This document shows positions 46,301 through 51,438 of a stretch of DNA of 51,438 nucleotides, one piece after another. This stretch comes from a virus (taxonomy: Duplodnaviria > Heunggongvirae > Uroviricota > Caudoviricetes). Numbering within the stretch: position 1 is the first letter of the stretch; each line of letters starts with the position of its first letter. Location of the stretch: IMG/VR virus record IMGVR_UViG_640753023_000009; one strand, written 5' to 3'. The position numbers were made by a program.

Positions 46301-49300
46301 GTGATTATGCAACCAACTTCTTATGCAAAACAATATAGTTATTTATACCTGACTGGTCTTATGCATACACCTAAACAGGTGTATTACGTAATGAAACAGA
46401 CTGGCGAATATGTTTGAGCAAACTCCACTGAACCGCAGACGTTATGGTCATGTTGCATAGTGTTTTGGAATATAAAGAATTATATATGAGCTCGCTGTTT
46501 GTAACCTGAAAAACAATAACGAATGTTATAATAAACTTGTTTGTTGTGCTGCTTTCACATTTTCTCATTAATCTTACCAGTAATATTTTTGTTGCTTTGT
46601 TGTTTCTGTTTTTTTATAAAAAAGAGGTGGTGCAGAGGAGGAAATATAGTGGATAAAAAACTAATTGCATTTTTGTGCACACTTATAATTACTGGTTGCT
46701 CGGATGGGATCGGTGATTCACCTTCGCCACCGGGAAAGAATGTAGAATTAGTCGGAATTCCAGGGCAAGGTGTCGCTGTTGCTTCAAATGGCACATCTCC
46801 AACATTTGGGAGCAACAGTACTGACTTTCCTGATGTTTCAATAATGAGCACAGGGGGAGCGATGCTTACTGTTTGGGCCAGACCTGTCCGTAACTGGCTT
46901 TGGGGATATACTCCGTTTGATTCAGTAAGTTTTGGAGAGAATCGGAACTGGAAGGTTGTGGATGGTAAAGATGCCGGTACAGTGAAATTTGTTAATGTTG
47001 CCCAGGGGACTTGCATGGAGGCCTTTAAAAACGGGGTGATACATAATACCTGTGATGATAATTCGTTATCTCAGGAGTTTCAGTTACTGCCTTCTACTAA
47101 TGGTAATGTGCTTATAAGAAGTAGCGCCTTGCAGACGTGTATAAGAGCAGACTATTTAAGCAGAACTATACTGTCACCGTTTGCTTTTACAATCACCCTT
47201 GAGAAGTGTCCTGGTGCAAAAGAAGAAACGCAAGAAATGCTATGGGCAATAAGTCCACCTGTCAGAGCGGCAAAACCAAATCTGATTAAACCAGAATTAA
47301 GACCATTCAGACCATTGCCAATTCCACCTCATGACAAACCTGATGGAATGGAGGGAGTATGAAAAAATTATTATTCCTGTTAATGATTTTGCCGGGTATT
47401 TCTTTTGCAGATTTAAGCGACTTTAAAGTTGCAACCTGGAATTTGCAGGGCTCAAATGCACCGACAGAAAATAAATGGAACACACATGTTCGACAACTTG
47501 TCACGGGAAGTGGTGCTGTTGATATCCTGATGGTTCAGGAAGCTGGTTCAATACCATCTTCAGCTACACTAACGGAACGTGAATTTCGTACACCAGGTAT
47601 CCCAATGAATGAGTATATCTGGAATACTGGAACGAATAGCCGTCCACAGCAGCTTTTTATTTATTTTTCGCGAACTGATGCTCTTTCTAATAGAGTAAAT
47701 TTAGCGATAGTATCTAACAGAAGAGCTGATGAGGTGATTGTATTATCACCTCCAACAGTGGCATCGCGTCCGATCATTGGAATAAGAATAGGTAATGATG
47801 TTTTCTTCTCAACTCATGCATTGGCAAACCGAGGTATAGATTCTGGAGCAATTGTTAACAGTGTTTTTGAGTTTTTCAACAGACAAACAGATCCTATAAG
47901 ACAGGCCGCTAACTGGATGATTGCAGGAGATTTCAACCGTTCACCTGCTATGTTATTTTCAACACTTGAGCCGGGAATCCGTAATCACGTGAATATTATT
48001 GCACCACCAGATCCAACGCAGGCCAGTGGTGGAGTGCTTGATTATGCTGTAGTTGGAAACTCAGTGAGTTTTGTGCTTCCCCTGTTGAGGGCTTCGCTGT
48101 TATTTGGGTTGTTAAGAGGGCAAATTGCCTCTGATCACTTTCCGGTTGGCTTCATTCCCGGAAGAGGAGCTAGAAGATGAGAATAATTATTACGATTTTG
48201 GTTTTATTGCTGACGGGATGTACTTCTGATGCGGTAAATCAACGAGGGCTTCTCACTCAGTTTGCTGGCAACAATGCTTCTGGAGATCCTGAACCCAGAC
48301 CTGTGTTGGTTAATATTAGAAACGTTCTTACTGGTGGGATACTCAGAAACCCTGTAGGTCGTGACTTCAATGTAAATAATTGGGTTATATCAGAAGTAAA
48401 GACTAATGATTTGGATTTGATATCGGCACCGGGGGGGCATGTTCAGATAAAAAACCCTGATGGTAATGAATGCCTTGCAATTCTAAATGGGCAATTAGCA
48501 GTGGCTAAACAATGCACTGAAAGCAATCGCAATGCATTATTTACATTTATAACCAGTGAAACTGGAGCTGTGCAAATCAAGTCGATTGGAAATGGTCAAT
48601 GTTTGGGGAATGGAGAAAGTGTTACAGATTTCAAGTTAACAAAATGTGTTAATGATCTGAGCCGTCCTTTTGATACGGTGTCGCCGGGATTACTCTGGAT
48701 GCTGAATCCACCATTATCTCCGGCAATAATGTCTCCATTGACGATCTAATCCGGAATTATCAATAAAACCGCAGCACGTCGTAAGCAAGAGCGTGCTGTG
48801 GTTGGATGCTATTTTTTATTATTGTATCTCTACTTCAGCATTTCCTGGACAGGATATATCTTCTGTTTTCTGTGGAGTGAGCAGGTGATGTACAACTGCT
48901 TTATCCACACATAAATTGACTCCGGTAAGAGCTAATGTATGCCCATCACCATTTATTGTCAGTAACGGGCTGGAAAATTTCTCTGCCATCTTGCGAGCAT
49001 TAATCCAGGGCGTTGTTGGGTCGTATTTGTGTGCAACAAACAGTAAACCCGAGGGCAGAACTGTATTTTTCAGGCGAGTTTTGTTCAGGTCGCTATGTAT
49101 TGGCCACAATTCACAAAAATCAGGTGAATCAGAGCGTCCATTGTCAAAGTTAATAGCTGGGAAGGCATTCGCAAGAGCGTCTTTTCGGGATTTTCTCTCT
49201 TCTGGTGTTAATTTCTCATCTCCCTGATCAACACAAAGGATTACCCCCAAAGCATCGCTTGACTCTTCTGAGGCTATTGGAGCACTGAGCGCAGTTTCAA

Positions 49301-51438
49301 TTTCATTACTGACAATCCCCTGTGAGAACTGGCGTATGGCAGTTGCAAGGGTTGGCCATGATGAACGCCATAATAGAAGGTCTGTTGTTAATGATATGAG
49401 TTCATCTGAAGATATATTTTCTCCCTTGCTGTCGATTAAAGGTCTGTGATGCAATTTTAATAACAGTTCGTGGAACTGAGTTATTGCCTTATCTCTGTCT
49501 GAAGAAAGCGGGCAACTTTTTGTACGCGCACACCAGGATGCAAAGCGATCAAACGTTTCCTGATAACTTTGTGCCTGTTTGAGTTGCCATGTGAAGTTGT
49601 CCTCCAGGTCATCAATATCGACGACTCCATCCAGAACGATAGATCTGACGTTGTAAGGAAAACGTTCTGCATATAAGGCTGCAATTTGTGTTCCATACGA
49701 ATACGCCACGGCTGTCAGTTGTTTATCACCCAAGGCTTGCCTAATACGATCAATATCATATACAGCCTCATTAGAGCCGATATGGCGAATGACTTCGGCT
49801 CCGGTATTATGGATACAGGCATTAATTTTATTTAGTACTCGTTGCTTTTCGGTTATGTTTTCCTGAATCTCTGTATCTGATTGCTGGCAGTTTATTGTCG
49901 GAGTGGACTGTCCGACGCCTCGAGGATCAAATCCAATAATATCCCATGACTCACGCAGATTTGTGACTGGCCAGTCAAAGTTAATATAAGGATTTATGCC
50001 TGGTAACCCGGGCCCACCACTTATTATCAGGATGCTTCCTTTATGCTTGCTTTTTGCCGGCAATTTTGTCAACGCTAGTTTGACTTGTGATTTTTTTTCA
50101 TAAGAAGCATCTCCGCCTATATTTGTATATTTTAATGGAACAGACAAATAACCACATAGTAAGTCAGGAGACGGTTTTTCCTCAGCAAACCAGTGGTTGA
50201 ATTGACTGGTCATACAGGATTGCCACTCGATCTGCTGGGCAGATACGGTTACGGGTAGAAGTAAGGTTAAAACAATCTTGAAATGAGCAATTATCTTTCG
50301 CATTGTGCCTCTGAATATCAGTATAAAGATAAAATTTGAATATATTGACCCCTGTGTTGCGGTAGGGGGCTACACGTTACGGATATTGGTCAAATGAGTA
50401 CAAAATTAGAGAATGTTGTTTACTTTGAATAGCAGATAAACTCCCCGGGGCTATGCATTACCACCGGGGAGATTTTAGTTAACGGTGTTAAAAGGTGTAC
50501 TTAAGACCAGCAGTAGTGATGAAATTATAGTTTTCTATGCCTGCACCATTTTTGCTGTATTCAGAAGTATTATCATTATGGTCATAAAGTGAAGTATCAC
50601 CTTTCTTATTCGTAACCCGATTCCATGCGCCTTCAACATAAACTTTTGCGTTAGGTGTTACGTAATAACCTGCATTGACTGCAATAGAATAGTAATTTTG
50701 GTCTTTGACCTTACTGCGATAAGTGATTCTTTTTACACGGGCATAGTGTTCATCGTTATCAGATGCTTCCACCCAGCCACTGTATTTAAATGTGCCACCA
50801 AACTCAAAATCTTCATAACGGTAACTACCCGTCAGGCCAATATAGGGCATTTTAAAACGTTGTTTATAGCCTATTACTCTTTCTCCATTCGGGATGGAGC
50901 CGATATCATCTCTGAATCCCTCGTCAGAGTATATATAGGAACCACCTCTGGCTGTAAAGCTATAACGGCTTTCCTGATATCCGGCCATAAGCCCCAAGCG
51001 GTAATTGGATTCGTTGAGGAGCCAGCCTTTGATATTCAGATCAAATTCGTTGGCAAAATTAAGGCGGGTATCGGGATGTCTGCTTTCATCTGTCCAGATG
51101 CCAGGTTTATCTGGGTCCTGCCAGTCACGGTCAATCATATTACCCCCTTTCTGACCGAGAGTAGTCCAGCCAGCAGCCCCGACCGATACCTGGGGCATCA
51201 AATCCCAATTAATTGCACCTTTAATAATTGCAGCGTTATTGAATTTCCAGTCGAGTTGACTGACTTTTTGGCCTCCTTCTTCGGCTAGATAAACACGCTC
51301 TTTTGTTTTTCCGCTCAGAGTTCCAAGACTAATGTCCGCATTTATGTTGTCAGGTGTAAACGATAAAGTCTCGGTAGAGGCAAAAGAGCAGATCGCAATA
51401 GGGGTTGTCAGAACTATTCCCAGAAGTTTCGCCCGCAT

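Follow-up and report, generated by a model that had tools for sequence, protein, structure and literature searches.

A predicted exported Hip1/TAP-like alpha/beta hydrolase gene paired with an omptin gene in a mobile cassette of Escherichia coli phages, plasmids and chromosomal islands

Introduction

Hip1 (Rv2224c, also named CaeA; PDB 5UGQ, 7SFM and 9MD7/8) of Mycobacterium tuberculosis entered the literature as carboxylesterase A and cleaves p-nitrophenyl (pNP)-butyrate, and it has been shown experimentally to be a protease as well as an esterase, removing the N-terminal tripeptide AKT from GroEL2 and also cutting GroEL2 internally (PMC4022732). The residues of its catalytic triad, oxyanion hole and S1 wall have been assigned (PMC4022732; PMC13041806), and five disulfides have been predicted (PMC4022732). 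The Streptomyces tripeptidyl peptidases (TPPs) A, B and C, i.e. Tap/TPP A, SlpD (TPP B) and SlpE (TPP C; MEROPS S33), are 30–38% identical to Hip1 and are peptidases (PMC4022732). Here, we describe a relative of these enzymes that is encoded in a 51,438-nucleotide stretch of viral DNA (IMG/VR record IMGVR_UViG_640753023_000009; the whole stretch is hereafter called the window). Its gene, referred to below as the hydrolase gene, lies between cdtABC, which encode a cytolethal distending toxin (CDT), and a gene for an outer-membrane protease of the omptin family. Together with the omptin gene upstream of it, the hydrolase gene makes up a mobile two-gene cassette that is found on lambdoid phages, F-type plasmids, iro plasmids and chromosomal islands. 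We consider it rather probable that its product is a Sec-exported, disulfide-rich peptidase/esterase of the Hip1/TAP clade that forms an envelope proteolysis module with the omptin.

Known omptin loci include ompT in DLP12, ompP on F, and arlC next to arlA and arlB on ColV-type plasmids, and ompT, ompP and arlC have PhoP-dependent promoters (bioRxiv 10.1101/2020.02.28.965145). The hydrolase gene is not among the published ompT contexts (nfrA-ybcH-[envY]-ompT-appY/ymcE/ybcY; PMC6854850), and no discussion of an omptin-hydrolase pairing was found in the omptin literature consulted. In the portion of PMC4606577 that summarizes Toth 2009, the prototype strain of cdt-IV, 28C, is given the gene order cdt-IV, rorf1 (‘putative protease’) and rorf2 (‘OmpT-like’).

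Results and discussion

Family, fold and catalytic residues

The open reading frame (ORF) announced in an earlier note on this DNA was found exactly as described there, on the minus strand with an ATG start, 494 codons and a single stop (Table 1). Its product is identical to ABJ00845.1 of avian pathogenic E. coli (APEC) O1, and the same coding sequence (CDS) in E. coli AH19B041, the DNA of which is 100% identical to the window over 46300–51438, is annotated by the RefSeq Prokaryotic Genome Annotation Pipeline (PGAP) as ‘alpha/beta hydrolase’ (WP_001226090.1). Two Pfam families were matched above their cut-offs: PF00561 (Abhydrolase_1) at residues 91–460 (114.4 bits; cut-off, 25.8; E = 9e-33), and the C-terminal ‘TAP-like’ family PF08386 (Abhydrolase_4), the defining C-terminal domain of the Streptomyces tripeptidyl aminopeptidases, at residues 386–485 (56.3 bits; cut-off, 21; E = 3.7e-15). 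When solved structures were searched by sequence, the only strong match was Hip1/CaeA (E = 3.6e-51, residues 21–475), with TnmK1 and TnmK2 next. An AlphaFold2 (AF2) model built on 40 homologues (pLDDT 88, pTM 0.88) has the canonical strand order, with a helical lid of ~190 residues (230–409) between strands E219–225 and E420–425, i.e. before the last two strands. The best PDB fold matches of this model were all Hip1 structures (template modelling (TM) score, 0.75–0.83; Foldseek E ~3e-33), followed by TnmK1/K2, and a search of the viral structures of BFVD returned only generic alpha/beta hydrolases (TM < 0.4).

Homology to Hip1 extends over the full length (~27–30% identity), and the two proteins share the same fold including the helical lid, the Ser/Asp/His triad, a GGPG oxyanion loop, a Tyr following the nucleophile and a D-P-x-T motif. 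Hip1 residues S228, D463 and H490, the Pro108–Gly112 oxyanion loop (G110), Y229 and T466 align with S202, D428, H455, G97-P98-G99, Y203 and T431 of the hydrolase, and the nucleophile elbow A-Y-S202-Y-G-T aligns with G-Y-S228-Y-G-T of Hip1. The numbered hydrolase residues are invariant in an alignment of 40 homologues ranging from E. coli to Mycobacterium, and in the model Ser202, Asp428 and His455 are placed at the canonical topological positions of the alpha/beta-hydrolase fold. The earlier note had pointed to the serine-hydrolase elbow and had named Pfam classification and triad mapping on a predicted structure as checks, with an incomplete triad counting against a hydrolase; the elbow and the classification both held, and the modelled triad is complete. 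Ten Cys residues (positions 30, 50, 139, 163, 258, 264, 357, 397, 465 and 485) are invariant or at least 90% conserved, and nine of the ten align with Cys residues of Hip1. This shared pattern implies five disulfides, which fits folding outside the cytoplasm. Judged from its residues and the predicted model, the hydrolase is a catalytically complete member of the Hip1/Streptomyces tripeptidyl-peptidase (‘TAP-like’) clade of S33 alpha/beta hydrolases.

A resemblance to both prolyl and tripeptidyl aminopeptidases of S33 had been suggested in the earlier note, and only the second half of this suggestion was borne out. Prolyl aminopeptidases (proline iminopeptidases) belong to the same superfamily and to MEROPS S33 and show local similarity around the nucleophile elbow (residues ~170–262), the matches to their PDB sequences having E values of ~1e-3 over roughly 80 residues. 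However, the prolyl aminopeptidase model TIGR01249 scored 36.2 bits against a cut-off of 259.75 and matched residues 170–262 only, and TM on the query was 0.34 to 1QTR, 1AZW and 1WM1, with only the core covered. Prolyl aminopeptidases are, moreover, cytoplasmic proteins of ~310–320 amino acids with a small cap and without signal peptide or disulfides, unlike the 494-amino acid hydrolase with its lid of ~190 residues. The likeness to the Streptomyces tripeptidyl aminopeptidases is seen through Hip1 and Pfam, i.e. indirectly; actinobacterial homologues of the hydrolase carry the name ‘tripeptidyl-peptidase B’, and the Streptomyces enzymes are Gram-positive secreted or lipoprotein enzymes, unlike the E. 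coli protein. The names given to the hydrolase across the databases are generic throughout (PHROG 20134, ‘unknown function’), and the literature yielded no functional study, in agreement with the statement of the earlier note that the protein has no assigned role.

Table 1. Coordinates of the hydrolase gene, its functional sites and the adjacent features in the window
Feature	Position	Strand	Basis or remark
Hydrolase CDS, exported (predicted) Hip1/TAP-like alpha/beta serine hydrolase, 494 aa	48819..50303	-	ORF; PF00561 + PF08386; Hip1 match
Predicted signal peptide, codons 1–22, MRKIIAHFKIVLTLLLPVTVSA, predicted cleavage VSA/QQ	50238..50303	-	Inspection and homologue comparison
Nucleophile Ser202 codon, motif A-Y-S-Y-G-T	49698..49700	-	Invariant in 40 homologues; Hip1 Ser228; in model between E196–201 and H203–214
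Acid Asp428 codon, motif D-P-T-T-P	49020..49022	-	Invariant; Hip1 Asp463; in model after strand E420–425
Base His455 codon, motif G-D-G-H-T	48939..48941	-	Invariant; Hip1 His490; in model after strand E447–450
Omptin outer-membrane protease gene, 316 aa, upstream partner	50488..51438	-	PF01278, E = 1.5e-128
G+C-rich hairpin, omptin stop to hydrolase start, then poor U-tract	50441..50471	-	-22.3 kcal/mol, z -3.4
Terminator-like hairpin and U-run just after the hydrolase stop codon	48767..48803	-	-18.8 kcal/mol, z -3.9; between convergent cdtC and hydrolase
cdtABC (CDT type IV) module	46133..48768	+	Insertion, context only; cdtA/B/C by Pfam and RefSeq annotation

Export signal and start codon

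The N-terminus of the hydrolase, MRKIIAHFKIVLTLLLPVTVSA followed by QQIEW, combines a positive n-region (MRK), a hydrophobic core (mean Kyte–Doolittle value, 1.97) and a V-S-A cleavage motif, and was judged by eye, and against the homologues, to be a type I signal peptide. The predicted mature protein comprises residues 23–494 (~52.6 kDa, pI ~5.4). By inspection, no lipobox was found in this signal, which ends in VSA/QQ without a Cys. All proteobacterial homologues possess an AxA-type signal and 10 Cys, whereas the actinobacterial homologues possess a lipobox (L-A-x-C or similar) and 11 or more Cys. Both Hip1 and the hydrolase are envelope-directed (exported) enzymes of pathogens, but Hip1 and its actinobacterial relatives have a lipobox-type signal with an extra Cys and would be anchored to the envelope, whereas the plain type I signal of the E. 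coli protein predicts a soluble enzyme in the periplasm or a secreted one. The lipoprotein or N-terminal anchoring that characterizes Hip1, SlpD and SlpE, though not Tap, is therefore no feature of the hydrolase signal. The cleavable signal peptide proposed in the earlier note was recovered, and the word ‘secreted’ used there is supported as far as predicted export across the inner membrane and no further. Searches of the literature gave no secretome evidence of the hydrolase; Z1931, detected in supernatants of enterohaemorrhagic E. coli (EHEC), was considered as a candidate and rejected, being most likely ompT itself (ECs1663).

Two residues located just past the predicted cleavage site, W27 and C30, are conserved from E. 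coli to Hip1. Because both lie upstream of Met31, Met1 and not Met31 is the right start. The record of phage 2G7b (NC_049954.1, 8001–9395) and the PHROG 20134 profile start the hydrolase at Met31 (464 amino acids). On the sequence evidence, this start is probably mis-called, and it cuts off the signal peptide, W27 and C30 and hides the export of the protein.

Distribution of the hydrolase gene and its pairing with an omptin gene

In total, 1314 of the 5426 complete E. coli genomes searched with megablast, including O157:H7, contain the hydrolase gene, mostly at ~95% identity, and the full gene is present in ~1290. A query composed of the hydrolase gene, the spacer and the omptin gene was covered to at least 80% in at least 1220 of these ~1290 genomes (~95%); the diverged variant described below is poorly detected by megablast, so that this count is a minimum. 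The hydrolase gene was also found in 11 temperate coliphage genomes and on 202 plasmids (174 of them conjugative), most of which carry a 77%-identical variant. The OmpP-type hydrolase, defined by an identity band of 60–80% (~77%), is present in 168 plasmid records, including those of virulence plasmids such as pVir68; this is a count of the hydrolase gene alone, by identity band. In F-like conjugative plasmids, this gene belongs to the IncFIB (RepB-int) backbone.

The order omptin-then-hydrolase on the same strand was observed in O157:H7 near minCDE, on an iro plasmid and, flanked by the tail-fibre region and int, in phage 2G7b. In a diverged lineage, ompP is followed by its own hydrolase gene on the F plasmid, related plasmids and chromosomal islands. 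Between the OmpT-type and OmpP-type lineages, the hydrolases are 77–79% identical and the omptins 70–74% identical (for the pair of the F plasmid, 77% and 70% at the amino acid level). As the pair is present in both, it predates the split of the two lineages, and it has been kept despite a synonymous divergence (dS) of >1 for the hydrolase and >2 for the omptin. The omptin of the window possesses the catalytic residues Asp83/Asp85 and Asp209/His211 (motifs DRDW and NDEH). The hydrolase gene is intact and under purifying selection: the ratio of non-synonymous to synonymous divergence (dN/dS) was 0.12–0.13 against the O157, phage and F-plasmid alleles (0.12 at both dS 0.17 and dS 1.1) and 0.25 against the near-identical iro-plasmid allele, dS ranging from 0.05 to 1.1 across the comparisons. 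This mobile and omptin-linked context distinguishes the hydrolase from Hip1. It resembles that of arlABC on ColV-type plasmids, likewise a mobile cluster of few genes with an omptin gene at its core; ArlB, the neighbour of the omptin ArlC, was considered as a counterpart of the hydrolase and rejected, since it is an NAD-dependent epimerase according to the literature and is unrelated.

Homologues with 40–55% identity were found in Salmonella, Serratia, Budvicia, Pantoea, Providencia, Pseudomonas, Chromobacterium and Acinetobacter, and the Nocardia/Mycobacterium Hip1 clade comes next with ~30% identity. A locus scan based on the family alignment covered the best 80 of 596 matches, which were mostly actinobacterial with almost no enterobacterial contexts, and look-ups of exact proteins were used for the contexts instead. 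In Budvicia diplopodorum (locus L091, 1341–6455), a 53%-identical homologue lies beside a gene for a Fic-domain protein and near a gene for an EptA-type phosphoethanolamine transferase. EptA-type enzymes are linked to cationic-peptide resistance; this context is a single case and may be coincidence. A machine-learning paper on Salmonella lists PF08386 as a ‘mild case’ marker, a correlative result that was not used here.

Since lambdoid phages tend to accumulate cargo genes between the tail-fibre genes and int, which is where the hydrolase gene is located, it could be asked whether the protein is prophage cargo that protects the lysogen against other phages or superinfection, and it does match the PADLOC model PDLC01094 ‘C3a206 TAP-like protein’ (189 bits). 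However, this model was built by guilt-by-association only, from three Nocardiopsis genes beside type III-D CRISPR loci (PMC6546367). Neither the omptin nor the other neighbours have a PADLOC match, and no CRISPR, cas or defence genes are adjacent. The protein is, moreover, predicted to be exported, and its gene also resides on plasmids and non-phage islands. A role in defence is thus highly improbable.

Spacer and transcription

The omptin and hydrolase genes are separated by a spacer of 184 nt (50304–50487), which contains a G+C-rich hairpin (Table 1), the stem of which is conserved in both OmpT-type and OmpP-type pairs. In the OmpP-type pair, the spacer is 92 nt long, with a strong Shine–Dalgarno sequence and ~35 nt between the hairpin and the hydrolase ATG, leaving little room for a separate hydrolase promoter. 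A sigma-70 scan directly upstream of the hydrolase gene yielded no convincing promoter; by eye, only a weak TATACT was seen, which is not conserved in O157. The hairpin is probably the ompT terminator, serving as a leaky attenuator for the hydrolase gene, or else an RNA-stability element within an omptin-hydrolase transcription unit. Together, the conserved hairpin and the 92-nt gap of the OmpP-type pair argue for co-transcription, as far as can be read from the sequence.

Proposed function and alternative explanations

In the explanation favoured here, transcription of the hydrolase gene would largely result from read-through from the PhoPQ-controlled omptin promoter. After export, the protein would fold in the periplasm, where its five disulfides would be formed by DsbA-type oxidation. 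By analogy with Hip1, it may act as a peptidase with an ester-cleaving side activity, cutting peptides or the N-termini of unfolded proteins as a tripeptidyl aminopeptidase or an endopeptidase. Action from free N-termini may hold here, as it does for Hip1 (AKT from GroEL2) and the Streptomyces tripeptidyl aminopeptidases. The pair would then work in two tiers, with the omptin making cuts in cationic peptides or proteins of the host at the cell surface, and with the hydrolase, downstream of or parallel to it, degrading or trimming the products or other envelope or host proteins. A precedent for such a two-step pathway of endoprotease and tripeptidyl aminopeptidase exists in Streptomyces mobaraensis, in which transglutaminase, once cut by an endoprotease, retains a tetrapeptide that the aminopeptidase then trims off. 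That the pair is a dedicated, horizontally mobile two-tier protease system, with the hydrolase acting in the periplasm or after release, or else that the hydrolase, like Hip1, cleaves a bacterial or host protein and thereby dampens immune detection, is a further proposal that we regard as improbable.

Several observations weigh against an envelope proteolysis module, and they bear on either the chemistry of the hydrolase or its coupling to the omptin. As to chemistry, the fold family includes non-peptidases, namely TnmK1/K2, the next-best structural matches. Glu113 of Hip1, which selects P2-Lys, corresponds to Leu100 in the hydrolase and Arg232 to Gln206, so that the substrate preference of Hip1 cannot be transferred. 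In addition, no enzymatic, localization or mutant data on the hydrolase or any proteobacterial homologue were found in the literature. The TnmK1/K2 matches and the two replaced residues would also suit an exported enzyme of another kind (carboxylesterase, lipase or lactonase), with lipids or esters of host or bacterial origin, or components of the envelope, as substrates, as would the original description of Hip1 as a carboxylesterase that hydrolyses pNP-butyrate (PMC4022732) and the names ‘putative lactone hydrolase’ in the records of phages 2G7b and ev243 and ‘pimeloyl-ACP methyl ester carboxylesterase’ at JGI. However, both names are automatic annotations without experiment, and the closest characterized relatives, Hip1 and the Streptomyces TPPs, are peptidases. 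The oxyanion loop, Tyr203 and Thr431, the counterparts of which contact peptide inhibitors in Hip1, are invariant, and the consistent partner gene encodes a protease. A non-peptide substrate is therefore considered unlikely.

As to coupling, the functional link between the hydrolase and the omptin is drawn from gene order only. About 60% of ompT-like loci lack the hydrolase gene (3135 genomes vs 1220), including the K-12-type DLP12 loci, from which it follows that the omptin does not need the hydrolase. In these DLP12 loci (L100 and L101), homology ends either shortly after the hairpin or 30 nt short of the hydrolase ATG, and the methyltransferase module is kept, which suggests that an ancestral phage b-region underwent precise loss of the hydrolase gene. 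The ~50%-identical (50–54%) homologues of Salmonella, Serratia and Budvicia stand alone on plasmids or islands, without an omptin neighbour. The spacer hairpin could also be a true terminator. When O157 Sakai enters stationary phase, the expression of ECs1662 and that of ompT (ECs1663) drop by >4-fold (PMC2241611), which is weak support for co-expression because the microarray cluster holding both genes is very large.

The working of omptins without the hydrolase, the solitary homologues in other Enterobacterales and the terminator-like hairpin between the two genes would also be expected if the hydrolase gene were an independent cargo gene (‘moron’) that was joined to an omptin gene once and whose product has its own targets, for example in peptide scavenging or the turnover of envelope proteins. 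Against such a purely historical linkage, the pair has survived the divergence of its two lineages, has remained unseparated through moves between phages, two kinds of plasmids and chromosomal islands (many of them bounded by insertion sequences), and is kept in ~95% of the hydrolase genes, with the hairpin and a short spacer conserved. We hold historical linkage to be a possible but doubtful explanation and prefer the envelope proteolysis module.

Independence from cdtABC

The earlier note correctly placed the hydrolase gene between a toxin operon and an outer-membrane protease gene: it lies between cdtC (plus strand, end at 48749) and the omptin gene, both of which were confirmed by Pfam. 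The role in toxin processing that the note derived from this adjacency is contradicted by the arrangement and distribution of the genes. The distance of 69 bp between the end of cdtC and the hydrolase gene, the exported nature of the products of both gene sets, and the order already recorded for strain 28C in the summary in PMC4606577 could be taken to indicate that the hydrolase takes part in the processing or maturation of CdtA, CdtB or CdtC or supports the activity of the toxin in some other way. However, the hydrolase gene and cdtABC are convergent, being located on opposite strands with a terminator-like hairpin between them (Table 1). Phage 2G7b contains no cdt genes, yet possesses the hydrolase gene, ompT and int. 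Homology between the window and this phage stops at 46132 and resumes at 48769, indicating that cdtABC was inserted as a discrete 2.6-kb unit between the tail-fibre genes and the cassette of hydrolase and omptin.

A query comprising cdtABC, the hydrolase gene and the omptin gene was covered in only 13 genomes, compared with the ~1290 that contain the full hydrolase gene. A cdt-I/IV-type operon is present in 75 genomes, of which 62 thus have no adjoining hydrolase gene. In IHE3034, cdt-I is directly followed by the host gene zinT, and in strain 3-72 an operon 96.6% identical to that of the window occupies the same insertion site and is followed by an unrelated gene, in both cases without the hydrolase gene. 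In pVir68 (NC_012944.1), which carries cdt-III, the hydrolase variant resides in the IncFIB (RepB-int) backbone with no cdt gene within 12 kb. Active toxin is made from cdtABC cloned by itself in K-12, a strain without such a hydrolase. As the constant neighbour of the hydrolase gene across E. coli is an omptin gene and not cdt, a role in toxin processing is unlikely. The hydrolase is independent of cdtABC and is not needed for CDT production; the explanation that it is a CDT accessory is close to refuted.

The segment 48762–48817, downstream of the hydrolase gene, is homologous to 6754–6802 of the phage 2G7b locus (L004) and to 4289–4345 of another locus (L002), and from its sequence looks like the scar of the rearrangement that brought cdtABC beside the hydrolase gene. 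DNA homologous to the 49–57 nt after the hydrolase stop codon follows an S-adenosylmethionine (SAM)-methyltransferase gene in the 2G7b, O157 and DLP12-type loci.

Prophage context

The window (1–51438) represents a complete Rac-like lambdoid prophage with intR (1..1236, minus strand) at one end and the start codon of the omptin gene at the other. The prophage of AH19B041 matches the window except for a 1.3-kb IS3 element inside its gpJ, the gpJ of the window (38335..41733) being intact. The tail-fibre protein gene (42459–44840) contains long Ala/Ser/Thr/Lys-rich repeats (AAKTSETNAK-type units), from which an AT skew of up to 0.56 at 42750–43500 originates. The phage genes preceding the point of cdt insertion end with a small ORF (45828–46136) for a hydrophobic protein of 102 amino acids, which has no Pfam or PADLOC match and is kept in the cdt-less phage 2G7b and in cdt-I prophages. 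For cdtA, mechanical ORF calling gave a TTG start at 46541 (273 amino acids), whereas the RefSeq start is the ATG at 46649 (237 amino acids).

Significance

The hydrolase gene has been noticed before, as rorf1 and as ECs1662; what is new here is the conserved omptin-hydrolase cassette and the relationship to Hip1. For CDT biology, the outcome is negative but useful in that the hydrolase neighbour is not a toxin accessory gene. Roughly one in four complete E. coli genomes contains the hydrolase gene, among them those of O157:H7 and of extraintestinal pathogenic E. coli (ExPEC) of the APEC O1 type, as does the classical F plasmid. Its product is, among E. coli proteins, the one most closely related to Hip1, which in M. 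tuberculosis is a validated virulence protease and drug target. As virulence factors, omptins have been well studied, but the gene conserved downstream of them seems to have escaped notice. If the two-tier reading is true, the carriers of the pair (EHEC O157, many ExPEC/APEC and F-plasmid hosts) would gain peptide resistance or immune evasion compared with omptin-only strains. If the two enzymes cooperate, published differences in omptin phenotype between EHEC, which possess the pair, and K-12 or strains of the enteropathogenic E. coli (EPEC) type, which have no hydrolase, may partly reflect the hydrolase.

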